From IMG/VR virus record IMGVR_UViG_3300050128_000007: a stretch of DNA of 62,769 nt; one strand, given 5' to 3'. The stretch comes from a virus. The notes below the pieces were generated by a model. The model did no database searches, was not told where the DNA came from, and saw nothing but the letters and a program-made list of their open reading frames with translations. Below are positions 11,161-62,123 of this stretch, in pieces; positions within the stretch are counted from its first letter, which is position 1, and each line of letters starts with the position of its first letter. A program made the position numbers and the translations under genes.

Positions 11161-11170
11161 AAGCAGAAAC

Positions 11171-38360: not shown

Positions 38361-38427
38361 AACCGACACAACTCCCGCACCGCCCAGCAAAGCATGTAAA
38401 CCGTAATCGCGAGCAGGACTGGGTCCC

Positions 38428-39754: not shown

Positions 39755-40993
39755 CTAAAATTCGAAAGCTGTGCAGTTCAGATTGAGTGCGGTTGCAGTG
39801 CCGCCGCCATTGGCCGCGAGATAGAGATCAAACCAGTATGCAGTGCCAGGGGTCAGTCCGGTGATGATGCCGCCTGATGTAAAAGGAATGCGCGGATTGG
39901 CATTGGCCGATTGGGCAATGGACGAAATCGGGCCGTTCACCGCAGTGCCAGTTACCGATACGCCGTTGCCCGGTGCCGTGCTGGTCCCGTAATAGGCCGT
40001 GAAAACGCCGCCATCGGCGGCCGCGCTGCTTCCAATGTCGCCGATGAACCAAATCTGGACGCGAGTGCTGTAGGTCGGCGTAAGCTTGCAAGTGCCGCCG
40101 AGACCCATCATCACGCCGGTTGTATTCGTGGTGCCGGTCGGATTGCTCGGCGAAGCCTGCAGCGTCGCGCTGTTATAGAGATTAAGCGTTCCGGAAGCTG
40201 CTGGGAGCGTGATCGTATAGGCCGTCGCGCTGGCGTTTGCGCTGGTGAACGTCGTGCAGCCGGTCGAGGAGCCGAGGATGCACAGATCACTATTGTTGAA
40301 GGTCTTGAGCGCCGTAAAGGTTTCCGCCAGTCCCAAGAGGCTGAGCGTGCCGCTCGCAGCTGGGGCGGTAAGCGTGTAGTTGGTTGCGCTTGCATTCGCG
40401 CTTGCAAACGTCGTTATGCCGGATGAGCTGCCTGGGATGGCGAAGTTGACCGTGACGCCGAAACCGGCCGCGCTGACCGCAATGTCGGTCCCGGCGATGA
40501 TCGAGAGTGAACCTGTCAGACCGTTCAAGGAGGAGACGCCGGCCACGCCCGATGACACCACGGAGGAAATGGTCGCCTTCTGGATCGCTCCGGCCGCAGC
40601 CGAGTAAACGATCAGGTAGTCGTTATTGCCGACAATGCTGCTGTCGTTGGTCAGTCCGGTAATCGTGGTCGGGCTGGCACCGAGGCTCGTCGGCGACAGG
40701 ACGCCGAAGCTGAGCGTGCCCGATAAATTGATAGCCCCGGCGATGGTGCCGTAGGTCGATCCCAACGTCATCGTGGTGGAGCCGAGCGTCACCGTCGCCA
40801 CGGAATAAGCCGCAGCGCCGAGCGCGCCGGAGCCGCAGATTGGCGTATTGCCGGAACCGTTGCCAAGGATTGGATAGTTCGCGCCGCAAGTAGAGAGCGT
40901 CAGCCCTTGCAAATAAGGTGTCGTGGTCAGCGGCGAAGCACTCGCCGAAATCAGCAATGCAAATAGTGCGATAATTGAAAGGAGATAGCGCAT
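39755..40993 (-). CDS. Tail fibre-like protein with an N-terminal Sec signal peptide (412 aa)
   Basis: ATG 40993 checked. MRYLLSIIALFALLISASA|SP. Internal repeat (F/T)SANASAT.YT.T.PAASGTL. Beta-rich C-terminal domain. Cys residues occur in pairs. Confidence 0.65.
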   Translation of the reverse strand: MRYLLSIIALFALLISASASPLTTTPYLQGLTLSTCGANYPILGNGSGNTPICGSGALGAAAYSVATVTLGSTTMTLGSTYGTIAGAINLSGTLSFGVLSPTSLGASPTTITGLTNDSSIVGNNDYLIVYSAAAGAIQKATISSVVSSGVAGVSSLNGLTGSLSIIAGTDIAVSAAGFGVTVNFAIPGSSSGITTFASANASATNYTLTAPAASGTLSLLGLAETFTALKTFNNSDLCILGSSTGCTTFTSANASATAYTITLPAASGTLNLYNSATLQASPSNPTGTTNTTGVMMGLGGTCKLTPTYSTRVQIWFIGDIGSSAAADGGVFTAYYGTSTAPGNGVSVTGTAVNGPISSIAQSANANPRIPFTSGGIITGLTPGTAYWFDLYLAANGGGTATALNLNCTAFEF

Positions 40994-41006
40994 TATGCTC
41001 TGTCTT

Positions 41007-42830
41007 TCAGTTCGAGATTTCGAGTGTGAGTTCACTGTCATAATTCCCGTACCAGTCCGGTCCATCGAAAGTTGATGGTGCGGTACCGGCCTCAACGGCT
41101 TGATAGAATGTGAAACCGAGGCCGGTGTAGTTGAGGGCGACAACGCACATCGAGCCTTGGTCTGCCGCCGTATATGACCCCTGACAGAGATTGCCGTTGG
41201 TGACTGCGGGCGTGCTGATGCAGTTGACACAGATGCCCGGTGAACCAGCCTGAGGCCCAGTGCTCGTGCCGTAGCTCATAGTCATGTATTCGACTAGGCG
41301 CACTTGAGAAAGGCCGAGCCCGTCGACCACGGATATGCGGTTGCCGGTGGAATTGTTCTCCGGCCGCCATGTGGGGCTGCCGTAAGGCCACTGCGAAGCA
41401 CCTTCGCGCTCGATCGCCTGCACGTTGACGCGGTTGTAAGCGTTGTAGAGACAGACGCAGTTGTTAGTGCCTCCGCTGGCCGGCGCGGGGTTTAGATTCC
41501 ATGATGTCGTGCTAGTCGCGGACGCATAGAACGTGCCGAGATAGGTTGCATTCCCGGCCGTGATTGAACTGGCGATCGTGCTACCGTTATTCGCGCAGGT
41601 CGCGATCGTGCTTGCGTTGGTAAAGTAACCATTCGCTCCTTGCGCGATGCCGTCCGCCCGCGTCGAAGCATTCGTCCATGGGTTGACGTCGTAGCAGAGC
41701 GCAGCGCTGCCTGAGCTTACGACCGCAAAGATGTCGTACAGGTTGGTCGCCACCGCATTCGTCGGCGTCAACGTCAGCGTCGCGAACGAATACCCGGTGC
41801 CGCTAATCGGGATGGATGCGGTTGCATAGGGGACGTAGCAAATCACCGCTGCGGAAACGACCGAGTTATTCTGAACTGGCGATGCACCGGAGCAACTACT
41901 CGCCTGCGCTACGAGCCGCCCACCTGGCTGGCCAATGACAGGCGGCGTTGCTGAAATCGTCTGTCCCACAATCGAAAGGCCGGTACCGAGCAGTACCGTA
42001 CCAGTAGCCCCACCAATCGACGATACACCGGTGAATACCGATGGCGCGGCCCATTTCATTTCGACTTGCTGGACATTGGCCGGGATGTTGGCGTCGAACG
42101 TGACGACGCCAGCGGCGAGGCTCCATGTATTCTGCGCTTGCGCGATGCCGTCGAAATAGATCGTGAGCTGGACTGCCGCTGTCGGCAGCGGTGTGTTGGT
42201 GATGGTCAGCGTGTCGACGGCGCCCGGAGAGGCAAAAATCTGGTCGCCGAGGCTAGCGCCACCACCGCCGCAAACGACGCCAGTGCCGCTAACTACGCCC
42301 GAGGTATTTGCCTGCAGGCATTGCGTCGAGCCAATGACACCGGAGAGCGTAAGATCATTAGCCGCGATGGTCAGACCGGCACCATTCGTAGTGACGCCGG
42401 AAATGCCACCGAAAAGGCCGTTAGTATTGTACTGGACTTGGGTGTTGATGCCGCCGGGCGTCCCGCCTCCGCTCCCGGATAGCCCGCTATAGACCGGATC
42501 AGCCGTCCAGATTTGATTGAATAAGGAATCCGTCAGGACGACCTTGTAATTGCCGTTAAGGAAAATGTTGGGGAAAACGCCGGCGGCGCTTGCGACCACA
42601 GGATTCGTATTCGGCACTGACAACAACGCATCAGAATAGGTCGTTAGCGGCGTATTGGTGCCAGAGGAATAGAAATACAAGAGCGCGCCGGGAATCGGGA
42701 CGCCGTTGCTGTCAACTACCGTCTGATATGGCAGCACGAACCGCGGCCCGAGCGGTACGGTTTGCGCCAACGCCGGCAGCGACGCAGCGAGCAAAAGGAT
42801 GAGGGCGACTAAAGACTTTTTGAAGTTCAT
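41007..42830 (-). CDS. Tail fibre protein with an N-terminal Sec signal peptide (607 aa)
   Basis: MNFKKSLVALILLLAASLPALA|Q, then a typical fibre N-domain (GVPIPGALLYFYSSGTNTPLTTYSD...NPVVASAAGVFPNIFL..YKVVLTD). There are many Cys pairs. Confidence 0.7.
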   Translation of the reverse strand: MNFKKSLVALILLLAASLPALAQTVPLGPRFVLPYQTVVDSNGVPIPGALLYFYSSGTNTPLTTYSDALLSVPNTNPVVASAAGVFPNIFLNGNYKVVLTDSLFNQIWTADPVYSGLSGSGGGTPGGINTQVQYNTNGLFGGISGVTTNGAGLTIAANDLTLSGVIGSTQCLQANTSGVVSGTGVVCGGGGASLGDQIFASPGAVDTLTITNTPLPTAAVQLTIYFDGIAQAQNTWSLAAGVVTFDANIPANVQQVEMKWAAPSVFTGVSSIGGATGTVLLGTGLSIVGQTISATPPVIGQPGGRLVAQASSCSGASPVQNNSVVSAAVICYVPYATASIPISGTGYSFATLTLTPTNAVATNLYDIFAVVSSGSAALCYDVNPWTNASTRADGIAQGANGYFTNASTIATCANNGSTIASSITAGNATYLGTFYASATSTTSWNLNPAPASGGTNNCVCLYNAYNRVNVQAIEREGASQWPYGSPTWRPENNSTGNRISVVDGLGLSQVRLVEYMTMSYGTSTGPQAGSPGICVNCISTPAVTNGNLCQGSYTAADQGSMCVVALNYTGLGFTFYQAVEAGTAPSTFDGPDWYGNYDSELTLEISN

Positions 42831-45655: not shown

Positions 45656-45658
45656 CGG

Positions 45659-47812: not shown

Positions 47813-47826
47813 GACAGATTATCCGG

Positions 47827-48042: not shown

Positions 48043-48743
48043 GACAACCCTCCAGTGATGGATCCGGGTATTATTCCCGTGTTATTTTGATTTTGCTGAC
48101 TGTTAGCAAGCAGAGAAGCCAGCAATCCGCTCTGGATTCCTCCGGTGACCTGATTAGTAGCTCCGGCGATTCCGCTGGCCGTCGCCTGCCCGGAAGCGAG
48201 CTGGCTATTTGCTACGCTCGTACCAGTGGTGGCACCAACTTGACCGGTGGTAGCCGCCGCGTTCTCACCCTGATTGGCAAGCGTATCGAGTTGCGAGACA
48301 TACGGACTCCACGCATTCTGCATGGCGTAGTTCTGGCCGTACTGCTGCGCCGCCTGAAGTTGAGCGCCGGAAAGCAAAGTGCCTTGCGACGCTGCACTTT
48401 GCTGTTGGGCTAAGTTGCCCTGTTGCAAGCCGAACTTGTAGCCGGGATAATTCGTAAGCGCCGACGTAGCGTTAGCAGCGGTGGCTGCTGTCGGCCCAGT
48501 TCCTGCGGCACCCCCGGTCCCAAGACCGAACAGAGAGGCCAATTGAGATACCGCGCTTTGGCCGACTTGATTGTAAGGAGCAAGATTAGCCTGCGTCTGA
48601 CCGAAGATGCTGAGTTGGGTGTTTGCTGCGGTCTGCGCTGCCGACTTCTGCGCGTCAGCGGATAGCACAGAGCCCGTTACGCCAGCCCCTGCGGTTAACG
48701 CACCAGCACCGAGAATCGCTGCGCTAATTGTAAGACTAGGCAT
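48039..48743 (-). CDS. Gln/Ala/Gly-rich internal (ejection-type) protein (234 aa)
   Basis: Called from composition and position. Confidence 0.55.
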   Translation of the reverse strand: MPSLTISAAILGAGALTAGAGVTGSVLSADAQKSAAQTAANTQLSIFGQTQANLAPYNQVGQSAVSQLASLFGLGTGGAAGTGPTAATAANATSALTNYPGYKFGLQQGNLAQQQSAASQGTLLSGAQLQAAQQYGQNYAMQNAWSPYVSQLDTLANQGENAAATTGQVGATTGTSVANSQLASGQATASGIAGATNQVTGGIQSGLLASLLANSQQNQNNTGIIPGSITGGLS

Positions 48744-49791: not shown

Positions 49792-49870
49792 AGCGTTCCT
49801 AACTTCCTGTTCGGAGGGGACGCCGTGCCTTCGTCCGTGTCGTCTTTTACCACGCGGTAGAGGCCATTGG

Positions 49871-50383
49871 CTAGTAGGCTGGATAGCCGAAGAGGTAGAA
49901 ATTTCCTTGAGACGTGGCCCCTTGGGCAGTTCCAACGTTGAGATAGAGCGTCGAATAGTTCCATATGGCTGTTGTGCCGGGGGTTAAGTTCGTTGTGGCT
50001 CCGGGCGTGTTGATTCCTGTCGCGGTAATGCCCGAAAGTGCCGTCTGGCCCAGAAGCACGGTTCCTTGCGTAAACGCGAGCGAATAAAGCCCAGCCTTCG
50101 CCGTTGAGAAGCTGCCGCTCGTTCCATAGACCAGGCCGAGCGCAGCGTGCCAGCCGATCGCGCCAGCCGGAATCGACAGGGTAATTGGTTTGTCCCCAGC
50201 AACGTTGAAATTGATCGCATCCGAATAGCCAAGTAGAAATATGCCAGGCGTGATGCCACCACCAGCAAAAGCCGCTGCCCATAATTGTTGAAGGAAGTTT
50301 AGGGCCGCTGCGGTTAATACACCGCTTGGGCTAACGAATGGCCCGAAGGAAAACGGAGGCAGAGTCGGAGGAGTCCCGGCCAT
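49871..50383 (-). CDS. Tail-associated structural protein (170 aa)
   Basis: It lies immediately after the hub gene and is beta-rich. Confidence 0.55.
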   Translation of the reverse strand: MAGTPPTLPPFSFGPFVSPSGVLTAAALNFLQQLWAAAFAGGGITPGIFLLGYSDAINFNVAGDKPITLSIPAGAIGWHAALGLVYGTSGSFSTAKAGLYSLAFTQGTVLLGQTALSGITATGINTPGATTNLTPGTTAIWNYSTLYLNVGTAQGATSQGNFYLFGYPAY

Positions 50384-50384
50384 C

Positions 50385-53339
50385 TTACATCCCGATGCTG
50401 ATGTCGGCGTGTGCGCTTATGATAACGCGTGGCACCGGATCGGTCACCGTCAGACAAAAAACGAATTGCCTCCCGTTCCCCATGCGCAGCCATCGTAGCC
50501 GCGTCAGGTATTGCCCTATCTTGCCCATTGATCGCCAGAATTGAAGCGGCTCGAACGTCTGAGCACCGTCAACAGACCAACTGAGCATGATCTGCGGATT
50601 AGAACCCGCACCACTCGCCGTTCCGACACCGGCCTGAATATCAAGTTCAAAGCGCGAAACGAACAGCCGCTTTCGATCTTGATGGTATGGGATAGAATAG
50701 GCTAACCCCCTGATTGTATTGCCCAATTCGGTATATACCGTCCAGTCAAGCAGATTGACTTTCTCGTTAAAACCATCACCGAGATAGGTGTTGTTGAACG
50801 CTACAAACGCCGTGCTAGGACGCCATAGCCCGAGCGATGTATTGGTCGATGTCCACGATTCTCGCTCGTGCCAACGGTTAGTCGAGATGTCGAATATGAG
50901 CGTGCGCTGTGAGGCTGGCAATTGGAGAACCACCATCTTGTGACCCTCCAGCGTAAAAGTGAAGCAATGCGCCTCCGCAACGTTGCGGTCCTGCGCGATG
51001 ATGTGCTCCATCGCGTGCGTGCTGACCCTGATCGGCACCGTCGATTGCAAACGGTAGAAAATCTTGTCCGCACCGAGAAAGAAGATAGCACCGTCCTGCT
51101 TGATGATGGTCTGCGGCGAGACGCATCCATAGCTGATGCCGGCGCCGGTATAGCGTGCGAACGGAAAAGGGAAAGCACCGGCGTCGTACCAGAGTTCAAG
51201 GTGCGCTTGGCAAATGACAAATAGCAGTTGCAGATTTTGTATGGTCCCGGTGACGAAATCCGGCTGCGACTCGGCGGACGCAAAATCGAGCGCGTTGTAA
51301 GTCGTCCCGTCGTACAGATTCGATAGGAAAAACTCATTCGTCCCCATGCGATCAAACACGAAATAGCCGTCAAAGAACGACACCGTAGCGGCTGGGTAGA
51401 ACGCAGGATCGGTTATCTGCTGAAATCCATAAGTCGCAGATTGCGGATTGGTGTCGAGTATCCATCCAGCCTGTGCCTGCGCGCTGACGATGCAAAGCTG
51501 GAAGCCGTTGTCCGACATGCTGACGATGTCGGTGTCTCCGATATTGCTTCCTACAAGTGCAACGGTGCCAACCTGATAGTTTAATCCTCCGGCGATTGCG
51601 CCGAGCGTTGCAATCCCGGTCCCAGTGAGCGTGACGACGGAAACCGAGAATCCCGTACCTCCGCCAAGTGGCGCGGACAGCACATCGCCAACTTCATAAT
51701 TGACGCCCGCCGCCGTGACGGCAACAGCGGTTACCACGCCTGCGATGATAGTAATATTGGCTGCCGCTCCGCTCCCTATCCCTCCCGTCAGCGGAACATT
51801 GTTATAAATCCCGGTCGTCGTTTGACCGAGTTGATAAAGCGAATTGCCGGCGACGACGTAGGGAACGTCCTGCCGCACCCACGAGCCGCGGATTGGCCCG
51901 ACGGTGTTGATTGCAACGACGGGAACGGCGAAACCCGAGCCGCCACCAATGGTCGCGACGACAGCGGAGAACCCCGAACCGGTGCCGCCGAGATTGGCAT
52001 TGGAAGCCGACAGAACGTCATTAACCGCATAGCCAAAGCCGGTTGCCGTGATAGTGACGGTGGTGACGCCGGGTGTGACGGTCGCGACTGGAACCGCGAA
52101 TCCAGAACCGGCACCGCCGAGATGTGAATTTGAAGCAGAGAGTGAATCGGAGGCGGCATAGCCGGATCCGCGATTGACGATTGTTACGACAGTGACCGCG
52201 TTACCGGCGACGGTGATATTCGCCGTTGCTCCCGTTCCCGTTCCGCCGGTAAGCGGCACGTTGGTGTAGGAACCGTTGACGTAGCTCGACCCTCCGGTGA
52301 TGCTACCGAGCGTCGCAATCACGTTGGTCACGGTAATGGAGGCCGCTGCACCAGTTCCCGTTCCGCTCGTCAACGGGACGTTGGTGTAGGAACCGACCAC
52401 GTAACCGGTGCCGGGCGCGATCGTGCCGAGTGTCGCGACAGTGCCGAGTGCGGCCGACAGCGTGTCGTAGACCAGATAATTGATGCCGGGATTATTGACC
52501 GCGACAGTGCTGACCGAGCCGTTGCTGAGCGTGATGTTACCGGTCGCCCCGGAACCAGTTCCGCCGGTCAGCGGCACATTGGCAAAATAGCTTGTCGTAT
52601 CAACGTAGTCGGAACCGCCGGTGATGGCCCCGAGCGTGACTATGTTGCCGCCGCCGAGCGTGCTCACCCGTGCCGTGAAATTTACTACCGGACTGTAAGC
52701 CCCAAGGTCTGCCGATACAATATCGCCGACCTTATAGTTGACGCCTGGATTAACAATCGTGATTGAAAGTACAGAGTAGTAGAAACCGACGGGTGTACTA
52801 GCAATATTCGCCGTGGCCCCAGTCCCAGAGCCGCTCGTCAGCGGGATATTCGAAACATTGAATTGATCTCTATATGCCCCTTCGTCCGTAATCGATGCGT
52901 TGTCTATTCCCTGATTACCGATCGTCGCCACTGGAACAGAAAATCCCGATCCAGTTCCGCCGATATTCGCGCTTGACGCCGAGAGCACGTCGTAGACCAG
53001 ATAATTGATGCCGGCCGTGGTGATGACAACCGCGGTAACCGCACCGCCGCCAATCGTGATAGTCGCGATAGCGCCGCTGCCAGAGCCGCCCGTCAAGGGA
53101 ACACTACTGTACGTTCCAGAACCATAACCAGAACCAGGCGTGATCGTGCCGAGTGCAGCGATTGCACCGACGATGGTCGAAGTGTCAGCAAACGCCGACT
53201 GACCAGGAGCGCCAAATAGCGGCGTCTGCGATTTCGCGCCCTGTGGTTCTTTCTCAGAGAAGAAGTTGACGAGCCGCTGCGCGTTTAGGGGAAGGCTTCG
53301 ACTTTCAGCCGACTCCACGGCAAACAGGATGTCCGGCAT
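50385..53339 (-). CDS. P22 gp10-like tail hub ('packaged DNA stabilisation') protein expanded by repeat-domain insertions (984 aa)
   Basis: The N-terminal LVNFFSEKEP...LFGAPG, ASAESQPDF and the C-terminal SWSVDGAQTFEP...WLRMGNGRQFVF parallel my recollection of P22 gp10 (about 470 aa). Confidence 0.55.
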   Translation of the reverse strand: MPDILFAVESAESRSLPLNAQRLVNFFSEKEPQGAKSQTPLFGAPGQSAFADTSTIVGAIAALGTITPGSGYGSGTYSSVPLTGGSGSGAIATITIGGGAVTAVVITTAGINYLVYDVLSASSANIGGTGSGFSVPVATIGNQGIDNASITDEGAYRDQFNVSNIPLTSGSGTGATANIASTPVGFYYSVLSITIVNPGVNYKVGDIVSADLGAYSPVVNFTARVSTLGGGNIVTLGAITGGSDYVDTTSYFANVPLTGGTGSGATGNITLSNGSVSTVAVNNPGINYLVYDTLSAALGTVATLGTIAPGTGYVVGSYTNVPLTSGTGTGAAASITVTNVIATLGSITGGSSYVNGSYTNVPLTGGTGTGATANITVAGNAVTVVTIVNRGSGYAASDSLSASNSHLGGAGSGFAVPVATVTPGVTTVTITATGFGYAVNDVLSASNANLGGTGSGFSAVVATIGGGSGFAVPVVAINTVGPIRGSWVRQDVPYVVAGNSLYQLGQTTTGIYNNVPLTGGIGSGAAANITIIAGVVTAVAVTAAGVNYEVGDVLSAPLGGGTGFSVSVVTLTGTGIATLGAIAGGLNYQVGTVALVGSNIGDTDIVSMSDNGFQLCIVSAQAQAGWILDTNPQSATYGFQQITDPAFYPAATVSFFDGYFVFDRMGTNEFFLSNLYDGTTYNALDFASAESQPDFVTGTIQNLQLLFVICQAHLELWYDAGAFPFPFARYTGAGISYGCVSPQTIIKQDGAIFFLGADKIFYRLQSTVPIRVSTHAMEHIIAQDRNVAEAHCFTFTLEGHKMVVLQLPASQRTLIFDISTNRWHERESWTSTNTSLGLWRPSTAFVAFNNTYLGDGFNEKVNLLDWTVYTELGNTIRGLAYSIPYHQDRKRLFVSRFELDIQAGVGTASGAGSNPQIMLSWSVDGAQTFEPLQFWRSMGKIGQYLTRLRWLRMGNGRQFVFCLTVTDPVPRVIISAHADISIGM
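51540..53175 (-). repeat. About eight degenerate ~70-75-aa coding repeats inside the hub gene (approximate bounds)
   Basis: Recurrent VPLTGG(T/S)G(S/T)GA.A.IT...G.V..V.I...G.(N/G)Y...D.LSA...(L)GG(T/A)GSGF.V.VAT. Confidence 0.7.
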
Positions 53340-53342
53340 GGA

Positions 53343-54353
53343 TCACCTGTGCGCCTGGTCGAAGTCCATACCGAATAAAATAGGCTCTGGCTCGCGGTCA
53401 TAGCTCTGGATCAGGTCCAACTTCATCGTCGCCATTTGTTGAATCATTTGCCAACGCTGCGGCGGAACGTCAAACTCCGGAGCCATCTCTTGGGCAAGGT
53501 TCCACATCAAACCGTTTAGCCATTCCTGCGGGAGATCGGCGGTGTTGGCTGGCGTGGTGAGGTCCATCAGAGGCCGATACCAAGTGAAACGCGCGCCGAA
53601 GTTTGCGTTCTGCGGACTTGGCCAAGGGTAGAACACGCCGGAGACCAACTGCGGCGAATAGAAGAATTGCGTCGAGATGCCGGGGTCAAGTGGGTTCGGC
53701 AAATCCATGTATTCCTTCCGCGAAAGGACGGTCATCGGCGTCAAGTGTGGACCCATGCTTTGGCCACCTTGGTAGTAAATCTGCCGCGCCATCGGGATCT
53801 TCAACGGGCGCACGATCTTCGTCGTGTAGTCGAAAGCGTTGTTCTGAGCAGATGCGGTCTGCCCCGCCGGGATGGCTGTGGCGAGCGTAACGACGTTCCC
53901 GACTGGAACACCGCTAACGGTAGTCCAGAACGCCACGCCGCTATCGAGAACGATGCCGAAGTTGTCTCCGTTAGTAACAGCCAATCCGTTTGGCGCGACC
54001 GTGTTGGTGACCGTGACGGTGGTATCGCCCCCACTAACCGGCAACGCGACCTGCATCGGCACCCACGAATAGGCGTCGCAGCAATTGTCCGGCCCCGTGC
54101 CGCCAGTGCCCGCGCCACCTAGCAGATAGCGGTTCTGGCCGGCCTGAAAGAATAGAATCGCCTCTTCCTCGGTCCAAACGTGGATTCCGAGCGCCATCCA
54201 TTCCTTAATCATCGCGTTCCCCGCGAACAGCGCGTCATTGTACATGCCAGCTGTCGGCGTTTCATCCTCCGCTATAGCGCCGAGTTTTCGGTACATCGCA
54301 GTCAACATCGACGTTATCGAGGCATTCCATGCTGACGTTCCGGAGGTTGTCAT
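53343..54353 (-). CDS. Virion structural protein (adaptor/tail-proximal, 336 aa)
   Basis: It lies directly upstream of the hub gene. Confidence 0.5.
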   Translation of the reverse strand: MTTSGTSAWNASITSMLTAMYRKLGAIAEDETPTAGMYNDALFAGNAMIKEWMALGIHVWTEEEAILFFQAGQNRYLLGGAGTGGTGPDNCCDAYSWVPMQVALPVSGGDTTVTVTNTVAPNGLAVTNGDNFGIVLDSGVAFWTTVSGVPVGNVVTLATAIPAGQTASAQNNAFDYTTKIVRPLKIPMARQIYYQGGQSMGPHLTPMTVLSRKEYMDLPNPLDPGISTQFFYSPQLVSGVFYPWPSPQNANFGARFTWYRPLMDLTTPANTADLPQEWLNGLMWNLAQEMAPEFDVPPQRWQMIQQMATMKLDLIQSYDREPEPILFGMDFDQAHR

Positions 54354-54829
54354 GGCAATCCAGGCTCCGGAGGCGGGCTCGGCTTGTACAGAGTGATCAA
54401 ATTCCCTGACGCCATTGTGTAAGGCAGACCCGTAGCTAGCACAAGATTGAAGCCCACAGGGGCTAACACAATCGTCGTGAAGAATACCGCTCCGCCATCT
54501 TGGTCGGTCATGCAGCCTACTTTCGCGCCGTTATAAAAGCCGAAGATGGTCTGCACCGGGATCACGGTCTGTCCGATCACGGCATTCGCCGTGGTCGCCA
54601 CGCTTATCGGACCGACATAGATGTTCTGGCCGAGGGGGCGCGCGTCAGGAACCGACTGAATATCGGGAACGCCTTTAACGAGATCCTGCGGCTGGCGAGG
54701 CTCCCAGACCTTCTCGTCGACGATTAAATTATTCCACTCTTTCCGCGTGCGCTCCGCGCGCTGTGGGAATCCGGTCCGATCATCTGTCCGGTAGAACGAC
54801 CCCATTTTGAAGTGAAGTTTACGGCCCAT
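54350..54829 (-). CDS. Virion structural protein (159 aa)
   Basis: Conserved-looking FYRTDDRTGF...WEPRQPQD motif. 4-nt overlap with the next gene. Confidence 0.5.
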   Translation of the reverse strand: MGRKLHFKMGSFYRTDDRTGFPQRAERTRKEWNNLIVDEKVWEPRQPQDLVKGVPDIQSVPDARPLGQNIYVGPISVATTANAVIGQTVIPVQTIFGFYNGAKVGCMTDQDGGAVFFTTIVLAPVGFNLVLATGLPYTMASGNLITLYKPSPPPEPGLP

Positions 54830-54897
54830 TTCATTCTCAATCTTCGGATTCGTTGCCTATACCATATCGCCGCGCAACTCGCACTCATGACAGATCA

Positions 54898-57800
54898 CTA
54901 TGCCGCTACCGCCAAGCCTACTGGCGTGTTGTCGTTGCTGCCGGGATCGAGGTCGCGGTTGAGAAGATAACCACCGCAGTTCGCCCCGACGCCGTTCCAG
55001 TCGCAGATGGCGGACCATTGAGTGACTGGGCTGTTGGTGTAGAGCGTATTCGGGCTAGTGGCGGGCGTCACGTTGCTGCTCATCGGCACGCCGCTCGCAA
55101 CTGTCGAGTTTTGCGATAACTCCAGAGTGTCGCCCGGTTGCGTCCCAGTGCCGCTGGCTATGAGCGTGATGGTGGTCTGCGATCCCGCTCCGGTGCCGGG
55201 ACCAGTAACGCCTTTGCCGAATATCGTGTCGCCTACCTTGAAGACGCCTGTCACCGTTCCGCCAAGCGTCATCGTGTTTGTCGAAATCGTGCATGAACTG
55301 CAATTCCCCTCGGTAAAGTAGCCGTAGATGTCCGGGAACCAGCCGAACCAAGGAAAGTAGCTGGCGGCCAGTGTGAACAGCGCGGGATACTGACCCCCGT
55401 TGGCGGCGAACTGCCCGTAGAAGTATGTCGTCAGTGTCTTGAGCGACGGAGCCAGGTAAGCCTGCGTGCGCAGGAAGTTAGTGTAGCCCGCAACATAGCA
55501 CGTCGTGGAGGCGGTACAGCCGCTCGCACCGCCGGAGCCGGTAAAGGTCAGCGTGGCACTCGTGAGCGTTCCGAGACCCGTGCTGTTGATGTTGACCGTG
55601 CATGTACTGTTCGTGGTCGCCGTGACAGTGAGGTTAGAGTAAGACGAGGCCCAAGTACCACTACTGACAACGCTTGTTAGTCCAACCGTCTGCCCACCGA
55701 CACAACCATTCTCGGATTGGGTGCCACCGGAATTGACCCCAGCCACGGAGAGAACGGCCGAACTCGCATTCGTCGCTGCGGTGACAGGTGCGGTCTTGTC
55801 AGTCGCCTGCGCATTAAACGAATAAGTTCCCTCATACCCAAACAGCGGCGAAGCGTTCATCGGGCAGCCACCAGGGCGCGATGCCTGGCCGCATGTAGCA
55901 CCAAAACCACTCCAGCCAATGTAGGTCTGGATTCGCTCGTATATGGTGACCTGGCTGGATGTGCTGCTCAGCGCCGTAGCCGTGTACGCGGACATGAGCG
56001 TCGATTGGCTGGCGCAACCAGCCGTGCTCGCGAGCGACGGATTTGCCACGTCATAGTAGAAGCACCAAGCGTCGGCGGTCTCCTGTAGGCTGTAAGCCTC
56101 GCCCGCAACCCAATAATTATCGACGGCGAGTCGCGTCACGTAGTTGTAGGCCGGCGCCTGCGTATAGCCGGACTGTGTTGGAATGTTCGATGGGTTCTGA
56201 TTGACGTAGGCATACGAACTCATCATGAGATTGTAGTAATTTGCGAGGTCGTAAGAACTCGTGCCAGCCGAGGTCTGTACGCCAGCAACGAGTTCGTATT
56301 TGCTCAAGCCGCTGGCGACGAGTGCCTGACCTAACGTGGAAGCTACCTTGCCTTCCTCCGCCAAGTTGTTTCCACCGGGACCGCAGTAAAAAAGACCATT
56401 GGTCCAGTGCGAGTCCAGCGCCTTGTAGGCATTCGACTTGGAGGACATGTAGCAAGACGACTGCGTGAGCGTGAAGTCCATCTCGTCAGGAGTTTCCTGA
56501 ATGAACGTCATGCTCGGAAAGGTACTCTTGGCGAGACTGTAGAAGCTCGGGTAATAATCCGTCATCGGATCGACGGCGAGAGATAACGCGACGACCCACA
56601 AATTCGTGTCAGTCTCGTAGGCGAGTTGAAGTTCTGCTTCCGGTGGGACCGCGCATGACAGCCCCTTGTCACTTCCGCCGCTAAAGTGCATCGCGCTGCC
56701 GAGAATGGCGTCGTAGACGATGATGTCGTTTATGTTCCCTGCTGGCTGGCCGCCGTTAGTTATTGCTTGACCAAAACTATTGGAAATAGGTACGGAGGCA
56801 TTACTGTTGAGGCTTATCTTGCTGGTCAACGTGCCACCCACAACGGTCACTGTACCGCTGACCGTTGTGGCATTGTTCGTGACCCACGACGACCCGCTGC
56901 CGCTGATAATGTACGTGCTTGCAGGAATCCCGGTGCCAGTTATTTGCGCGCCGACATTGATCGTGCCCGTAACGCCAGACGATGTTAGGGCTGTGCTGCC
57001 GCTGCTCGCACCTGTAAAGCTCACCCCGCTTACGGGCCAGACAAAAACTATTGTTTCTTTGTCTGCAAAATTTCCCGAGCCGAATGTCACCGAATAGGTA
57101 TCGGTGCTACTGGCGTAGGTGATGGCGCTCGCTGTCAGACCTGACGGCTCTTGTTCTGCGGACCAAGAATAGAATGCGCTCGGTGTCCTGTTCGCCCATA
57201 TAGTACAGTTCGAGTTGTTCGCGTTCCCCCAGTTAAGATCGCGGATTATCTTGAAGTTCGCCTGCGCTATTCTCTGCTTCCACAGCACGCCGCCGAGCCC
57301 AGTGCTCGAACCCAGTGCAAGCGGGGCCGTCCACGATATCTCCTCGTCGTTGACGTGGACTATCTCAACGTCTTTGATCGTGTTGCCACTGGTCGTAGCG
57401 ATGATGGAAAATGCCCACGCCCCCCCCGTTGTACTTCCTTCGCCGGTAACACTCATCTCGAAGCGCCAGCCTGGATTGATGCTGCCGCTACCGACGCTCT
57501 GCGAATAGTTGAGCAGATAAGTCCCGACCCCACCTGTCCCGGTGCAGGATGGGCAGTTGGACGACCCAGACTCCCCGGTGATGATGGTTGGCGTACCAAA
57601 CAAGCCGACCAGGATCGACCCACCCGAGATAGGTTGACCGACAACCAAGCCACAGCCGGTTCCTGTTGGAGCTATGGTGACGGTGAGATAATATCCGGTA
57701 ATCGAACCTGTGAATGAAGAACACCCAGACGTAGTGCACTGAGCATTTCCGAACCCGCCCATTGATCCGGTGCAAAGCACTCCCGCATTTGTACCGCTAG

Positions 57801-58194
57801 TGTCGTAAAGAGAAACTTCACCGCTGCCGATACCGCGCGCAACGTAGTGGCCCGGCCTCTCGGCCTGCAATGGAACTGGAATGGTCGGTGAATAATCGCC
57901 GCCGTGACTGACCATCCCGGTCGAGCCGTAGAGCGGGTAACCGTTGTTATCCAGTTCTCCGACAGCGGGATGACCACTACCGTCAACATAGGTCCAGCCC
58001 GCCGCTCCCTTGAAAACGTTCACGGTCGGATTTTCGCCGCCTGCACCAATGAATTGCGGAGTGACCAGCGAGTTGGCGACGGGTGTGCTGCTTCCGCTAC
58101 CGCCGTTGCAACAAAACGCTCCAAACGTCCCGGCGGCATCAGATTTGAGCGCCCCCGCGACCAACAATAGAATTACGAAAATAGAGCGGCGCAT
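54898..58194 (-). CDS. Large exported Cys-rich protein (1098 aa), possible glycan-binding or depolymerase-like
   Basis: Signal peptide MRRSIFVILLLVAGALKSDA|A. About 24 Cys, many in close pairs (FCCNGG, AQCTTSGCSS, NCPSCTG, GNCSSCT). Confidence 0.6.
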   Translation of the reverse strand: MRRSIFVILLLVAGALKSDAAGTFGAFCCNGGSGSSTPVANSLVTPQFIGAGGENPTVNVFKGAAGWTYVDGSGHPAVGELDNNGYPLYGSTGMVSHGGDYSPTIPVPLQAERPGHYVARGIGSGEVSLYDTSGTNAGVLCTGSMGGFGNAQCTTSGCSSFTGSITGYYLTVTIAPTGTGCGLVVGQPISGGSILVGLFGTPTIITGESGSSNCPSCTGTGGVGTYLLNYSQSVGSGSINPGWRFEMSVTGEGSTTGGAWAFSIIATTSGNTIKDVEIVHVNDEEISWTAPLALGSSTGLGGVLWKQRIAQANFKIIRDLNWGNANNSNCTIWANRTPSAFYSWSAEQEPSGLTASAITYASSTDTYSVTFGSGNFADKETIVFVWPVSGVSFTGASSGSTALTSSGVTGTINVGAQITGTGIPASTYIISGSGSSWVTNNATTVSGTVTVVGGTLTSKISLNSNASVPISNSFGQAITNGGQPAGNINDIIVYDAILGSAMHFSGGSDKGLSCAVPPEAELQLAYETDTNLWVVALSLAVDPMTDYYPSFYSLAKSTFPSMTFIQETPDEMDFTLTQSSCYMSSKSNAYKALDSHWTNGLFYCGPGGNNLAEEGKVASTLGQALVASGLSKYELVAGVQTSAGTSSYDLANYYNLMMSSYAYVNQNPSNIPTQSGYTQAPAYNYVTRLAVDNYWVAGEAYSLQETADAWCFYYDVANPSLASTAGCASQSTLMSAYTATALSSTSSQVTIYERIQTYIGWSGFGATCGQASRPGGCPMNASPLFGYEGTYSFNAQATDKTAPVTAATNASSAVLSVAGVNSGGTQSENGCVGGQTVGLTSVVSSGTWASSYSNLTVTATTNSTCTVNINSTGLGTLTSATLTFTGSGGASGCTASTTCYVAGYTNFLRTQAYLAPSLKTLTTYFYGQFAANGGQYPALFTLAASYFPWFGWFPDIYGYFTEGNCSSCTISTNTMTLGGTVTGVFKVGDTIFGKGVTGPGTGAGSQTTITLIASGTGTQPGDTLELSQNSTVASGVPMSSNVTPATSPNTLYTNSPVTQWSAICDWNGVGANCGGYLLNRDLDPGSNDNTPVGLAVAA

Positions 58195-59126
58195 CAGAAA
58201 TTGTATCCGTAAGTGGCGCTCCGCTGGTTGGTGTTCAGCGCCGACTGATCGCCGGTCGAGAGCGCGCTGCCATAGTAGCCATCCTCGCAGACGTACATGG
58301 CGGTGGCGGTTGGCGCGCCAGTTGAAATCGGGGCAGTCCCCGTCGAACCGCTTCCTGGATTGACGGTTGTGGGGGCCGCACCATCAACGCTATAGGATGA
58401 CGATGCCCCGTTGAATACTAGCTCGACTGTGTTCAGTTGGTTATCTGTGACCGGAACAGTAACGTAGGTGGAGCCAGCATACATTTGCGCGCTGTTGGCT
58501 GTATTGTTGTACGTTTGGAACAATGGCCCGCTGCCGGAATAAAAGTTTTCTATATCAGCGAAAGAAACTGTACTCGTGCGATCCATAACAACGGAAATTG
58601 AGAATGTGCTGAAATTAGTACCGTTACCCGATGAATCACTAAGGCCGCTAGCATATTTTGAGCATGGCAATCCGTTGAAGTATGACAGCGCCAGCAGTGG
58701 CATATTTGCCAATGTAGCCTGCACCTTCGGATTGCTACCTACTTGGTCGTATCTTTTCGTAATACTACACCCAGGGGCACAATAAGATGCAGCACTCGAA
58801 ACCGGGGCGCTATTCGGACAGACGATTGCCGACATATTCGCAGCACCGTTTGTCCCCGCATTGATCGTGCAGGTTCCTGTGCCTGTCGAGGTTAGGACAA
58901 CATCGCAGAGCGGGTTCTGTGCTGCGGCATAAGACGAGCTGACGGCGCGCGAGCAACTCCACCAACTGACAGGCTGGGCCGTGGTGACGTTATTGGGGCC
59001 GGTGTAGCCGCCTCTACCAGACGCAACGAGCGGCAACCATCCCGCCGCACGCGTCGGCGCTTGCGCTAGGCAGAACAGCCCGGCGCAGAATATGACGACA
59101 GAGAGGAACGGGGCTAGGCGTCTCAT
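58194..59126 (-). CDS. Exported Cys-rich protein with a jelly-roll (LamG/ConA-like) C-terminal half (310 aa)
   Basis: Signal peptide MRRLAPFLSVVIFCAGLFCLAQA|P. Eight Cys in the mature part. Confidence 0.55.
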   Translation of the reverse strand: MRRLAPFLSVVIFCAGLFCLAQAPTRAAGWLPLVASGRGGYTGPNNVTTAQPVSWWSCSRAVSSSYAAAQNPLCDVVLTSTGTGTCTINAGTNGAANMSAIVCPNSAPVSSAASYCAPGCSITKRYDQVGSNPKVQATLANMPLLALSYFNGLPCSKYASGLSDSSGNGTNFSTFSISVVMDRTSTVSFADIENFYSGSGPLFQTYNNTANSAQMYAGSTYVTVPVTDNQLNTVELVFNGASSSYSVDGAAPTTVNPGSGSTGTAPISTGAPTATAMYVCEDGYYGSALSTGDQSALNTNQRSATYGYNF

Positions 59127-59136
59127 GGGAGGACCG

Positions 59137-61659
59137 CTACTGCTGTACGTAAGTTAAGACACCCTCAAAGGCCGCAGTAGCGCCAATCGTGGTCACCGCA
59201 CACAACCCCTGACTTGCTGTCGTCTTGAAAACCGTGCCTAGCCCATTGCCCATCGAATAGAACGATGGGGCCGCTGCAACCACGCTGCCTGTGCCATAGG
59301 TTCCCGTTAACGCGGTTGTACCAGTGCAATTCGTGCTGGTCCCATATTCAAAATACAGAGTGTTGGCGGTTGTAACGACATTGCTTGCCGAGAAGCTAAA
59401 GCCGCAAACATAAATTGATGTTGAACCGGAAACCGCGACGAGCTGTGTCGTTGTTGCTGTCGTGATTGTGATAGGCGCACTGGACTTTTGCGCGTAGCTG
59501 CATGGGTCTTGATCGGAAGCGAAAGTAACTGGAACCGAATTGGCTTTAGTCGCCTGCCCGAGTGCGACAATGCCGTTGCTCCCAGCGTTGATCGTGACCG
59601 AGAGCGATTTATCCGTAGCTGGCGATGGAGTGCTCGCAGGCTTGACCGCAGCCGCGCCATTCGTTCCGTCCGTTATCTCGGTAAATCCGGGGTTGGTAAC
59701 GGAATAGGTAGAGCCGTTGACCTGCGTCTGGTTCACCGCAGCCGTACCTGCAGCGACGTTGACTTTGAGAAACCCGTTGGGGTCGGACTGCAGCGCCGCC
59801 GATTGCGTGTTGCCGACCGTGAGCGGGGTGGAGTTGTAGACCGCCCCGCCGATCAGCGCGTCGGCTGGTGCCGTACCCGCACCGACAGCTCCGCGCATGG
59901 TCAGGAGATCGACCATCGAGCCAGCCGCGAGAGAGCCTGACGCGAAGGCACCGGATGCTACAGCGCCAGATGGGACGGTATAGACGCCGACCTTGAGATT
60001 TTTGCTCGCATCATCCTGCGCCTGATCCCATGTCGTCCCGTTGTAGAAATAGTTGTGGTTGACGACAGGAGAACCGAACGTTGTTGAAGTTGCGATGCCA
60101 CTAGTCGCATCTGTAACGTTGTTGTTCGTATTGTCCACGGTCGTATGAAGCGAACCAGCCGATGTGACTTGGAGCGCCACCATCTGCCCAGTCGTAAGCG
60201 ACGGTGCCGAGGATAGATATTCCGCACCGGCTGCGGTGCCGGTAGCTGGGAAGGTGGCCGAGAACGAGGACGACGTGCCCCCTGCACCACCACCGACCTT
60301 CACGTTGACGAGCAGATTGCCGGCGTTGTCGAGCTGGAACGGCGAGACGTTTCCGGTCGTGATCGTCGTCGGCGTGGTGTTGAACTGGCCCAGAGCCAGT
60401 ATGCCATTCGTGGGCGAGGCTACGTTCTGCGTACTCGCAGCGAGACCCCACGTCGCGATCGTCGTGGGATTGACCGTGCCGATGGCCGTGGCGGAACTCG
60501 CCTGCAGAGTAGCCTGAACGGCAAACGTGCCGGTGCCGACCACGGTGGCGTTGAGGTTCGCGGGGGTCGCCTGAGTGACCGTGTTGGTCCACGTCCCACT
60601 CTGCGTGACCGCCGGGATATTAGTGACGTAGGCATTGACCCCGAGAACCTCGACGGCGCCGGGACTGGTGCCGTAGTTCGACGGCGCTCCGAGCGCCGTT
60701 CCGTCGACCTGCGTGAGATTGATGGTCCACGGCCCGGAGGCCTGCGTGACCGCGCCGATGGTGGCCGCGCCCGCGCTGAGCCCGACGGTCCACGTCCCGC
60801 TCTCGGCAGCCTGAACGGCAAAGGTTCCAGCATTGGATACGGGCTGCGTCGCTTGCCAAAATGTTCCGGTTACGGGGAACGTGCCACCCGTTCCCGTCAC
60901 CAACCACGCTACCGTATTCGCGGTGTTGCCGGGTTGCACGGTCCAAACACCGCTTTCCGTCGCGGCTACCGTTCCAGTAATTGTCGTCGAGGTTAGCGAA
61001 ACAGGTTGCGTAGTTTGCCAGAACGTCCCGCTGACGGGCTGTGTGGCCTGCCAAAACGTACCCGAAACAGGAAACGTCGCGCCCGTGGCAGGCGATACCC
61101 ACAGCGGATTGGTCGCGCTTGGCGCGGCACTAAGTATCTGCGTAAGGTTGACGTTACCGCCGCTGCCACTACCGGAACCGCCGCCAGTGCCAGTCGGCAA
61201 ACCAGTACCGCCTAGCATGTTTGCGGTCGTTGACCCGCCCGTCGCTATACAATGAAGCGCCGTGCTTCCACTCGGTATCGTAAAGGCAAACCATCCTCCA
61301 CCAGACGTAACCGGCTGATCGGCCGTGGTTGCTGCAACGTCAAGGACGTTGCAGTACATCGGATTAGTTCCGACGTTGCTAACGACTACTACCGCGCCTA
61401 CTGGCAACGTGCCGCTGGAATCCGAGGTCGTGACGGTAAGAGGAGTGCCGCGGGCACCAGGCGTGAAACCGCCTAATGTAGAGGAGAACGTACCGTCAAC
61501 ATTGATCGAGCCGTCCGAATTGACCTTGAGCTGGTGCGTCAGCGTCGTCGGGTCGGCGATGAATACCGTGCCGAGATAGTTGGTCTGCTGGGCATGCGCG
61601 GCAGATGCGATGACGGCAGCGAACGCGACGACGATGAGGGCTTTGAGGTATTGCCTCAT
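59137..61659 (-). CDS. Large exported fibre-like protein (840 aa)
   Basis: Signal peptide MRQYLKALIVVAFAAVIASAAHA|QQ. Gly/Thr/Ser/Ala-rich. GTFWQ(A/T)TQPVS repeats lie at about 60997..61074 and 60835..60879. Confidence 0.6.
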   Translation of the reverse strand: MRQYLKALIVVAFAAVIASAAHAQQTNYLGTVFIADPTTLTHQLKVNSDGSINVDGTFSSTLGGFTPGARGTPLTVTTSDSSGTLPVGAVVVVSNVGTNPMYCNVLDVAATTADQPVTSGGGWFAFTIPSGSTALHCIATGGSTTANMLGGTGLPTGTGGGSGSGSGGNVNLTQILSAAPSATNPLWVSPATGATFPVSGTFWQATQPVSGTFWQTTQPVSLTSTTITGTVAATESGVWTVQPGNTANTVAWLVTGTGGTFPVTGTFWQATQPVSNAGTFAVQAAESGTWTVGLSAGAATIGAVTQASGPWTINLTQVDGTALGAPSNYGTSPGAVEVLGVNAYVTNIPAVTQSGTWTNTVTQATPANLNATVVGTGTFAVQATLQASSATAIGTVNPTTIATWGLAASTQNVASPTNGILALGQFNTTPTTITTGNVSPFQLDNAGNLLVNVKVGGGAGGTSSSFSATFPATGTAAGAEYLSSAPSLTTGQMVALQVTSAGSLHTTVDNTNNNVTDATSGIATSTTFGSPVVNHNYFYNGTTWDQAQDDASKNLKVGVYTVPSGAVASGAFASGSLAAGSMVDLLTMRGAVGAGTAPADALIGGAVYNSTPLTVGNTQSAALQSDPNGFLKVNVAAGTAAVNQTQVNGSTYSVTNPGFTEITDGTNGAAAVKPASTPSPATDKSLSVTINAGSNGIVALGQATKANSVPVTFASDQDPCSYAQKSSAPITITTATTTQLVAVSGSTSIYVCGFSFSASNVVTTANTLYFEYGTSTNCTGTTALTGTYGTGSVVAAAPSFYSMGNGLGTVFKTTASQGLCAVTTIGATAAFEGVLTYVQQ

Positions 61660-62096: not shown

Positions 62097-62123
62097 CGGT
62101 TTCTCCTAACCTCCCGACGGTGA

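Follow-up and report, generated by a model that had tools for sequence, protein, structure and literature searches.

Predicted Sec signal peptides on the tailspike and four other late proteins of an uncultured podovirus

The stretch of viral DNA studied here (IMG/VR record IMGVR_UViG_3300050128_000007; 62,769 nucleotides, called the window below) encodes five large late proteins of 840, 310, 1098, 607 and 412 amino acids (aa), each of which starts with a predicted Sec-type signal peptide. The 607-aa protein is, by its sequence, the true tailspike of the phage, with an intact docking domain and docking platform, and the predicted cleavable signal precedes this domain. Virions of tailed phages are taught to assemble entirely in the cytoplasm. 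We propose, with about an even chance of being right, that the five proteins are substrates of the host Sec system and that the receptor-binding proteins among them fold oxidatively in the periplasm and dock on spike-less particles at lysis. A little more tentatively, we suggest that extracytoplasmic completion of the virion in this way is shared by a widespread, uncultured clade of podoviruses from soil and groundwater, and that thousands of phage proteins from the environment likewise combine a signal with fibre modules that are otherwise ordinary. Tailspikes and fibres are proteins of a known kind; the new part is the predicted Sec signal on them.

N-termini of the five late proteins

All five open reading frames (ORFs) are located on the minus strand where the original prediction had placed them, at 59137–61659 (840 aa), 58194–59126 (310 aa), 54898–58194 (1098 aa), 41007–42830 (607 aa) and 39755–40993 (412 aa). 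The annotated starts are supported by the tight packing of the genes and by a Shine-Dalgarno sequence. ATGA overlaps connect the 146-aa gene with the 840-aa gene (61656–61659) and the 942-aa gene with the 607-aa gene (42827–42830), the 310- and 1098-aa genes share one nucleotide at 58194, and a GGAG Shine-Dalgarno sequence is found upstream of the 607-aa gene. For the 412-aa gene the ATG at 40993, 13 nucleotides past the stop of the 607-aa gene, is preferred because a longer ORF starting at GTG would overlap the 607-aa gene. The five genes are translationally coupled within the late operon, and no promoter-like sites separate them from the rest of it.

The basic n-region, the hydrophobic core and the AxA-type site that had been described for each protein are all present, with cores of 13–18 residues. 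With the predicted cleavage site marked by an arrow, the N-termini read MRQYLKALIVVAFAAVIASAAHA↓QQ in the 840-aa protein (residues 1–23, AHA↓QQ), MRRLAPFLSVVIFCAGLFCLAQA↓P in the 310-aa protein (residues 1–23, AQA↓P), MRRSIFVILLLVAGALKSDA↓A in the 1098-aa protein (residues 1–20, SDA↓A), MNFKKSLVALILLLAASLPALA↓Q in the 607-aa protein (residues 1–22, ALA↓Q) and MRYLLSIIALFALLISASA↓S in the 412-aa protein (residues 1–19, ASA↓S). The net charge of the n-region is +1 to +2 in all five, and the best 10-residue Kyte-Doolittle mean is 2.9–3.4. No lipobox is observed in any of them. Signal peptides were called by a rule-based score of our own, which has a false-positive rate of 1.9% on shuffled sequences, together with conservation across homologues. 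The rule flags 10 of the 71 genes of the window, namely the five, two small coiled-coil proteins and proteins of 194, 138 and 195 aa, the last of which is a probable false positive; among the 62 coding sequences of the closest cultured relative it flags none. The 310- and 1098-aa proteins begin with MRR. The twin-arginine translocation (Tat) pathway was nevertheless rejected for them, since the twin arginines are not conserved among homologues, which have KK, RK, KR or single basic residues at this place, and since the cores are strongly hydrophobic. Taken together, these features indicate that the five proteins carry real Sec-type signal peptides, of the class predicted to be cut by signal peptidase I.

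The 607-aa tailspike

The tailspike (41007–42830) is composed of the signal peptide (residues 1–22, 22 codons, 42765–42830, minus strand), a linker QTVPLGP, a head-binding (tail-docking) domain (residues 28–118, 42477–42749, minus strand) and a variable receptor-binding part with 12 cysteines. The typical fibre N-terminal domain that had been seen in this protein is well supported. A profile of the head-binding domain identifies solved structures, with E = 9e-21 for 9vyg/9vyh, named 'Tail spike protein', and E = 4e-18 for 7eeq, named 'Tailspike head-binding domain'. The 607-aa sequence by itself gives E = 2e-15. In these solved chains the domain starts at residue 4–6, and in the annotated tailspikes of Shewanella phage X14, Rhodoferax phage P26218 and Vibrio phages at residue 6–10. 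The window tailspike departs from this usual N-terminal start of the domain, which is preceded by the 22-residue signal and a linker of 5–7 residues. The signal is missing from the solved structures and from the signal-less relatives.

The gene lies in the usual slot, after the ejection proteins and before the lysis genes, an order that is kept in relatives, and the adaptor and nozzle genes are present. A six-frame hidden Markov model scan of the complete genome reveals a single copy of the head-binding domain and no second one. In the contig of the homologue P0027 and in the related contig L118, the stretch from the ejection proteins to the lysis genes holds a single large gene, which encodes a signal-bearing spike.

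Among the 44 database relatives that share the head-binding domain, 28 carry a signal while the other 16 start directly at the domain, for example with MSGGS-RFVLPYQ, and the domain of these signal-less forms is up to 77–79% identical to that of the window. Those signal-bearing forms that have long contigs are found on contigs of 56–64 kb, and the signal-less forms on contigs of 31–43 kb. Within the signal-bearing set the docking domain averages 74% identity, whereas in 55 of 60 random pairs there is no relation between the C-terminal parts; some relatives have pectate-lyase-type domains. A conserved domain with unrelated C-termini is the usual pattern of a selected docking module that is joined to exchangeable receptor-binding modules.

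The contig L117 (36 kb; positions 260–11536) has the same gene order as the window and a head-binding domain 73% identical to that of the window tailspike, on a spike without a signal. This spike begins MSGGSRFVLPYQ (MSGGS-RFVLPYQ) and has only 3 cysteines. The partners are also alike: the adaptors of the two phages are 64% identical over the full length and the nozzles 73% identical over 400 aa. From their sequences, the window phage and L117 form a natural matched pair, one with and one without the signal.

A cytoplasmic isoform of the tailspike made from an internal start was considered and rejected, as neither a conserved in-frame internal start nor a Shine-Dalgarno sequence for a signal-less form was found in the window or in the related contig L089.

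Conservation of the signals

Whether homologues in related phages keep the signal peptides was suggested earlier as a check, and the signals are conserved. An n-h-c N-terminus of its own is found in 12 of 13 homologues of the 1098-aa protein, at 30–45% identity. Among 1.84 billion representatives there are 693 clusters related to the 310-aa protein, and a signal is present in at least 114 of the 150 that match best; for the tailspike the count is the 28 of 44 given above. The C-terminal knob of the 412-aa protein occurs in more than 120 proteins, and signal peptides are present on at least 53 of these. The GTFWQATQPVS repeats of the 840-aa protein occur in 355 stretches of viral contigs, where about 30 of 66 distinct ORFs begin with a signal. 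Overall, about half of the retrieved relatives with fibre repeats, knob domains or head-binding domains are signal-bearing.

The cleavage region of the 28 signal-bearing tailspike relatives follows strict rules. Position −3 is Ala or Val in 25 of 28 and position −1 is Ala, Ser or Gly in 27 of 28, while position +1 is Gln in all 28 and is usually followed by TVPLGP. N-regions rich in Lys and Arg are found among the homologues, and the hydrophobic segments diverge in sequence with the n-h-c pattern kept. Retention of the pattern while the sequence drifts is the kind of conservation that signal peptides show.

A similar picture is obtained from the head-adaptor slot, the region between the homologues of the 146- and 159-aa genes, in close relatives whose adaptor is 72–84% identical to that of the window. 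The first gene of the slot retains the signal and the mature N-terminus AQTNYLGTVFIAD...NVD, and the length past this conserved N-terminus varies, the whole ranging from 161 to 840 aa. The second gene shares only its signal peptide, which is 61% identical over residues 1–23 (window 59058–59126, minus strand, against L095 8389–8457 and L096 8807–8875), whereas the mature parts are unrelated. This suggests that cassettes are exchanged immediately behind an export signal that stays in place. Runs of consecutive signal-bearing late genes are also observed: 7 in L087, 6–7 in L088, and 5 after the ejection genes in L089. The signal trait is, as far as these sequences tell, clade-wide and common in environmental phages.

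Cysteine signature

The mature parts contain even numbers of cysteines, as had been reported: 6 in the 840-aa, 8 in the 310-aa, 24 in the 1098-aa, 12 in the 607-aa and 6 in the 412-aa protein. Most are arranged as neighbouring pairs, and the motifs NCPSCTG, AQCTTSGCSS, SYCAPGCS, NNCVCLYN and GICVNCIS are all present. Cysteine makes up 0.7–3.2% of the five proteins versus 0–0.6% of the core virion proteins (capsid, portal, ejection, adaptor and nozzle). There is none in the 942-, 717-, 234-, 170- and 146-aa proteins and a single one each in capsid and portal.

Even cysteine counts are what fully disulfide-paired exported proteins show. For the spikes, the count of cysteines begins at the RFVLPYQ motif. 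It is even in 25 of 28 signal-bearing spikes (binomial p = 2.7e-5, an optimistic value for related sequences), which are never free of cysteine and reach 1.59 cysteines per 100 aa, whereas the signal-less spikes are even in 9 of 16 cases with 1.03 per 100 aa; the difference in density has a Mann-Whitney p of 0.009, which is optimistic for the same reason. The fibre-repeat proteins of viral contigs behave in the same way. With a signal, 21 of 25 are even (p = 9e-4, likewise optimistic), none is free of cysteine and the density is 1.04 per 100 aa. Without a signal, the density is 0.25 per 100 aa, 13 of 33 have no cysteine and parity is random. The bias towards even counts in the signal-bearing forms is a signature of an oxidising compartment.

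The 840-, 412-, 310- and 1098-aa proteins

The original prediction spoke of five large fibre-like proteins. This description holds for the 607-, 840- and 412-aa proteins and does not hold for the 310-aa protein, a globular beta-sandwich, or for the 1098-aa protein, which is multidomain and not an obvious fibre.

In the 840-aa protein (59137–61659, minus strand) the signal is followed by a mature N-terminal module of about 30 aa, QTNYLGTVFIADPTT...NVDG, which is 58–90% identical in the related contigs L092–L097 and L101. Three GTFWQ(A/T)TQPVS fibre repeats are found at residues 200–280, and the C-terminal region behind them holds 4 of the 6 cysteines. No match to this protein was obtained in Pfam, PHROG, NCBIfam or PDB. 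The 412-aa protein (39755–40993, minus strand) is a second fibre. Its claimed tail-fibre-type repeats were found as two repeats of the form ...SANASAT.YT.T.PAASGTL.L, and it ends with a C-terminal knob (residues 274–412) that contains the pair Cys302/Cys407. A signal-bearing 469-aa gene occupies the same position in L089. Searches found no solved relatives of the 840- and 412-aa proteins, and Pfam, PHROGs and NCBIfam gave no match for the 310-, 1098- and 412-aa proteins. Judged from their sequences, the 840- and 412-aa proteins follow the same modular fibre logic as the tailspike.

The 310-aa protein (58194–59126, minus strand) has a single beta-sandwich domain with 8 mature cysteines behind its signal. 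Its AF2 model (predicted local distance difference test, pLDDT, 86.5) superimposes in Foldseek on the GH54 arabinofuranosidase catalytic domain (6sxt and 1wd3; E = 2e-9, template modelling score 0.65–0.66), and it also resembles ConA/LamG-like phage proteins. The family profile matches 1wd3 at E = 2.3e-4, over the C..C..YDQ.GNGNH motif only. The protein itself has no Pfam match, while distant multi-copy relatives match PF09206. The C-terminal arabinose-binding domain of GH54 is absent, and GH54 chains have 482 aa. As catalytic residues could not be mapped, we describe the modelled fold as GH54-like and do not call the protein a GH54 member.

The 1098-aa protein (54898–58194, minus strand) carries 24 cysteines and ends with a conserved tail, ...LLNRDLDPGSNDNTPVGLAVAA (54898–54966, the last ~22 residues), with the family form LL(K/N)RDLDPxxNDNxPxxLxxAA. 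This tail is strongly conserved even at 30% overall identity and is also found in the homologues P0004, P0005 and P0009–P0011. Judged by its sequence, the tail could serve in docking or sorting, or form a calcium-binding loop. Cysteines are also conserved in the family. Structure prediction with AF2 gives a poor model (pLDDT 57.9), for which no fold match is significant, and none of 14 family members has a Pfam match; by sequence the protein belongs to an undescribed multidomain family. Assignment to the clan GH-A TIM-barrel glycanases, on the basis of FE..NE.WN and YEGG motifs, is not claimed, as the Foldseek matches to TIM barrels are non-significant and a search of the profile against PDB was empty. 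Homologues are located on podovirus-like contigs, and in L086 an SU10-type adaptor gene comes directly after the homologue. A single non-phage context was seen for the family: the homologue P0008, which lacks the conserved tail, lies on a 108-kb bacterial contig (L006, 10001–13207) in a chromosomal O-antigen/exopolysaccharide cluster and adjoins a Mutator-type transposase. A bacterial origin or role of the family was rejected, since P0008 alone is chromosomal and the remaining homologues lie on phage contigs.

The 310- and 1098-aa proteins would be, from their sequences, exported accessory proteins, perhaps with folds like those of carbohydrate-active enzymes, that may or may not be bound to the particle.

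Proposed assembly pathway and alternatives

We propose the following order of events. Capsid, portal, adaptor, nozzle and ejection proteins would form DNA-filled, spike-less particles in the cytoplasm late in infection. The receptor-binding proteins would meanwhile pass unfolded through SecYEG, and signal peptidase I would cut them, leaving an N-terminal Gln. In the periplasm the exported proteins would fold, trimerise and form their disulfides. Particles and spikes would mix after the holin has opened the inner membrane and the envelope has broken down, and the head-binding domains would then dock at the adaptor-nozzle junction. Spike addition is a spontaneous last step in the in vitro complementation of phage P22. 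A likely side benefit is that exported depolymerase-like proteins would act on the surface polysaccharide of the infected cell before release, limiting superinfection and the loss of progeny on debris.

Of the three options raised by the original prediction, maturation of fibres in the periplasm with joining at lysis gives, on sequence grounds, the best fit for the 607-aa protein and probably also applies to the 840- and 412-aa proteins. The option of exported non-virion factors fails for the 607-aa protein, which has a docking domain and a signal-less counterpart in L117 with the same adaptor and nozzle, but it remains for the 310- and 1098-aa proteins. Uncleaved N-terminal helices are disfavoured by the kept −3/−1 rules, by the invariant +1 Gln of the 28 relatives and by hydrophobic segments that diverge with the n-h-c architecture kept.

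Several points weigh against periplasmic maturation. Export, cleavage and the site of assembly are all read from sequence. Docking after lysis must compete with dilution, and Sec export of proteins of 600–1100 residues in virion amounts is demanding. Nothing ties the 310- or the 1098-aa protein to particles. The trait is missing from the cultured phages searched and from any identified host. The homologue sets used for the cysteine counts are not phylogenetically independent, which makes their p values optimistic. Furthermore, the structural proteins of Agrobacterium phage Milano contain 2.1% cysteine and many disulfides without export (PMC10811340).

An alternative that we consider unlikely, though worth weighing, is dual localisation. 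Export would be partial, the exported pool would serve as free enzymes or receptor blockers in the envelope, and a cytoplasmic pool, left behind when Sec is saturated late in infection, would reach the particles with its signal uncleaved or trimmed in another way. This would reconcile a conserved head-binding domain with conserved signals. Heavy late expression could plausibly exceed the Sec capacity, and depolymerase-like folds, such as the GH54-like 310-aa protein and the pectate-lyase-type domains of relatives, would be useful in the envelope. However, no conserved internal start would provide a signal-less isoform, and a hydrophobic extension of 22 residues in front of the docking domain is likely to aggregate or interfere. 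The strict −3/−1 conservation and the invariant +1 Gln speak for selection of the cleaved form, and the bias towards even cysteine counts suggests that the functional form is fully oxidised. Somewhat less probable still is that all five are exported non-virion factors such as glycanases, lectins or decoy spikes. They would remove or cover receptors, loosen extracellular polysaccharide to help release, or exclude superinfecting phages, in the manner of Lom and Bor of lambda or Llp of T5, which are encoded among tail genes. The 310- and 1098-aa proteins do resemble enzymes or lectins more than fibres, the head-adaptor slot is a variable cassette in which the signal peptide alone may be kept, one 1098-aa homologue sits in a bacterial polysaccharide-synthesis cluster, and Lom (PMC12309495) is a known example of a signal-bearing protein that is encoded beside fibre genes and is not part of the virion. 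This explanation fails for the 607-aa protein, whose docking domain is strongly conserved while the rest is swapped, which is the sole docking-domain protein of a complete genome and occupies the tailspike slot, and whose domain is used without a signal by L117 together with the same adaptor and nozzle. If it were off the particle, the phage would be left without a recognisable receptor-binding protein. The genes are also coupled in translation within the late operon and are not independent moron units.

We regard it as improbable, and as the least probable of these explanations, that the N-termini are no export signals in vivo, being uncleaved tethers, assembly helices or mis-called starts, or belonging to a host with an unusual envelope. 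In its favour, the closest genome matches are signal-less forms in metagenome-assembled genomes (MAGs) of Alphaproteobacteria. Against it, the starts are fixed by the ATGA overlaps and the Shine-Dalgarno sequence, and the signal architecture and the cleavage-site rules are kept across hundreds of sequence-variable proteins. Even if uncleaved, a positive n-region would put the bulk of the protein in the periplasm, and the parity of cysteines differs between forms with and without the segment.

Comparison with known systems

We know of no receptor-binding protein of a tailed phage that is Sec-exported. Our literature search, with many subscription journals outside its reach, gave no paper that describes signal peptides on the tailspikes or fibres of a tailed phage. 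Other late proteins of phages do take the Sec route of the host: the signal-anchor-release (SAR) endolysins, such as Lyz of P1, and the signal-peptide endolysin of Oenococcus phage fOg44 are exported before lysis and stay in the periplasm up to the moment when the membrane is de-energised. These are lysis enzymes and not parts of the virion.

The closest structural relatives are podovirus tailspikes (7eeq, 9vyg/9vyh, and the logic of P22 gp9), which share with the 607-aa protein the domain, gene position, modular build and adaptor/nozzle partners. In a cyanopodophage, the head-binding domains of the fibres dock at the adaptor-nozzle junction (PMC12002296). The domain of podovirus tailspikes begins at residue 4–10, while the window protein adds the 22-residue signal, the QTVPLGP linker and a cysteine-rich mature part.

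WceF of Pantoea stewartii is a bacterial, tailspike-like trimeric beta-helix glycanase that is exported by a Tat signal and thought to act on exopolysaccharide in the periplasm or biofilm (PMC7949094). It resembles the window proteins as a tailspike-type protein that leaves the cytoplasm via an N-terminal signal peptide. WceF is, however, a chromosomal enzyme in an exopolysaccharide cluster, whereas the window proteins are encoded by phage late genes with Sec-type signals, and one of them keeps a docking domain. Lambda Lom and Bor and T5 Llp also have signal peptides, adjoin fibre genes and act at the cell surface (Lom: PMC12309495). These proteins are small, reside in the outer membrane or are lipoproteins, are typically expressed on their own and lack fibre or docking modules, while the window proteins are large, modular and translationally coupled. 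Morons are recognised by a promoter and terminator of their own among structural genes, and this arrangement is not seen for the five genes.

Two further systems are similar in part. The g3p and g8p proteins of the filamentous phage M13 are virion proteins with signal sequences that are inserted by Sec/YidC and assembled outside the cytoplasm (PMC8310372). M13 belongs to another virus realm and is extruded through the envelope without lysis. Phage Milano, a phage of an alphaproteobacterium, also has cysteine-rich, disulfide-stabilised structural proteins (PMC10811340). There the disulfide-linked proteins form the core of the tail (sheath, tube and baseplate), whereas in the window cysteine is a feature of the signal-bearing outer proteins alone, with almost none in the core. 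None of these nearest known systems combines a docking domain of tailed phages with a Sec signal.

If the proposed pathway is true, a conserved cleavable export signal on the tailspike would add an extracytoplasmic step to assembly, with docking domain and platform otherwise standard. The timing of infectivity would be tied to lysis, and the infected envelope would contain a built-in receptor-destroying activity. Disulfide-stabilised receptor-binding proteins would suit harsh environments. For annotation, caution is advised: among signal-bearing viral proteins of metagenomes, those labelled 'secreted' may belong to the virion, and a viral 'secreted glycoside hydrolase' may in fact be a spike. 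Since the cultured phages searched lack the trait, it is easy to miss. The matched pair with and without the signal, the window and L117, makes the question directly testable.

Genome and late operon

The two ends of the stretch are identical over exactly 127 bp (1–127 and 62643–62769), which indicates a circularly closed, complete genome of ~62.6 kb whose late operon crosses the junction. The portal is of the SU10 type and the capsid protein is HK97-like; further library matches were obtained for a DNA-ejection protein, an internal protein with a transglycosylase, the nozzle/tail hub and the adaptor. Based on its gene content, the phage is a predicted short-tailed virus (podovirus) that is packaged by a terminase and depends on lysis. 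No tRNA and no integrase were found in the window. The late operon runs on the minus strand in the order terminase, portal, scaffold, capsid, 195 aa, 146 aa, the 840-, 310- and 1098-aa genes, 159 aa, adaptor (336 aa) and nozzle (984 aa), and then 170, 399, 234, 717 and 942 aa, the 607- and 412-aa genes, 103 and 78 aa and the lysis genes. On the minus strand of 54300–62769 no promoter-like sites stand out, their counts being at or below the shuffle expectation.

Neither the adaptor nor the nozzle has a signal peptide. The adaptor (53343–54353, minus strand) matches PHROG 12985, has relatives annotated as SU10_adaptor and is part of the tailspike docking platform. The nozzle/tail hub (50385–53339, minus strand) matches PHROG 578 at E = 3e-89, with relatives annotated as Phage_stabilise. 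At about residues 70–580 it contains an insertion of ~500 residues made of repeats such as GSGY..Y.NVPLTGGTGSGA.ANITV, with matches to PHROG 6005/5342, which is missing from the 474-aa nozzle of L117. This insertion may be an extra surface-binding array on the tail hub.

No close cultured phage was found, the best portal match being 38% identical (Alcaligenes phage), and the cultured phages searched gave no DNA or protein match for the 840-, 1098- or 412-aa proteins. Genome scans aimed at the host turned up no signal-bearing form. Only signal-less relatives were seen, in MAGs of Alphaproteobacteria, Caulobacteraceae and Gammaproteobacteria and in Cupriavidus, and one knob-domain relative is found in Bradyrhizobium.

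Small signal-bearing proteins and other observations

Two small signal-bearing proteins are encoded behind the fibre genes. The 103-aa protein (39432–39743, minus strand) has a signal peptide (ALA↓QQQ) and a coiled coil, and the 78-aa protein (39071–39307, minus strand) a signal peptide (AFA↓QQQ) and a helical region. They had been taken for paralogues, but BLASTP finds no alignment between them. The 103-aa protein has a weak match to PHROG 89, Rz-like spanin (E = 2e-4), amid many unspecific coiled-coil matches, and its N-terminus looks cleavable, unlike an anchor. Small signal-bearing helical proteins also follow the fibre genes in relatives, with an 85-aa counterpart in L089. The earlier idea of periplasmic fibre chaperones is thus possible for these small proteins, and the 103-aa protein may, by its sequence, instead be spanin-like.

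A terminator-like hairpin is located at 39061–39077 (minus strand), right after the 78-aa gene, and a promoter-like site at 39374–39403 (minus strand), between the 103- and 78-aa genes; both are pattern matches. The late fibre operon may thus end, on this sequence pattern, at the hairpin ahead of the lysis genes. The lysis cassette downstream contains a family-19-type endolysin (37671–38390, minus strand) with matches to PDB endolysins at E = 3e-15. A 138-aa protein (35912–36328, minus strand), without a family match, starts MQNLSRRSLLSSAAVAIPAIAVSGC, in which a twin-arginine-like motif is followed by a lipobox cysteine. It is the only lipobox protein seen, with embedded frames outside the search, and lies 3 kb from the 103-aa gene. 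By sequence it could be a lipoprotein, perhaps a candidate for an outer-membrane spanin. The 194-aa protein (32574–33158, minus strand), also without a family match, has a signal (PAQA↓YW), 4 cysteines and a His/Arg-rich tail, YRHRYRHRHY.

Among the ejection genes, the 399-aa protein (48736–49935, minus strand) has a conserved N-terminal motif, FIVFSLPRSRSAW..RFLSYGG..CGHDLA, which is also present in L089, L092, L096 and L100. It is 68% identical to a protein of L118, and its PHROG 'hydrolase' matches are weak. Two genes for IS1595-family transposases, each with a Zn-ribbon and a DDE domain, are found at 12353–13300 and 23606–24568 on the plus strand. In L118 (63.6 kb, with a signal-bearing spike), the structural region includes at 1314–2531 a gene for a Wzy_C-like polytopic membrane protein of the O-antigen polymerase/ligase type, by a weak match.

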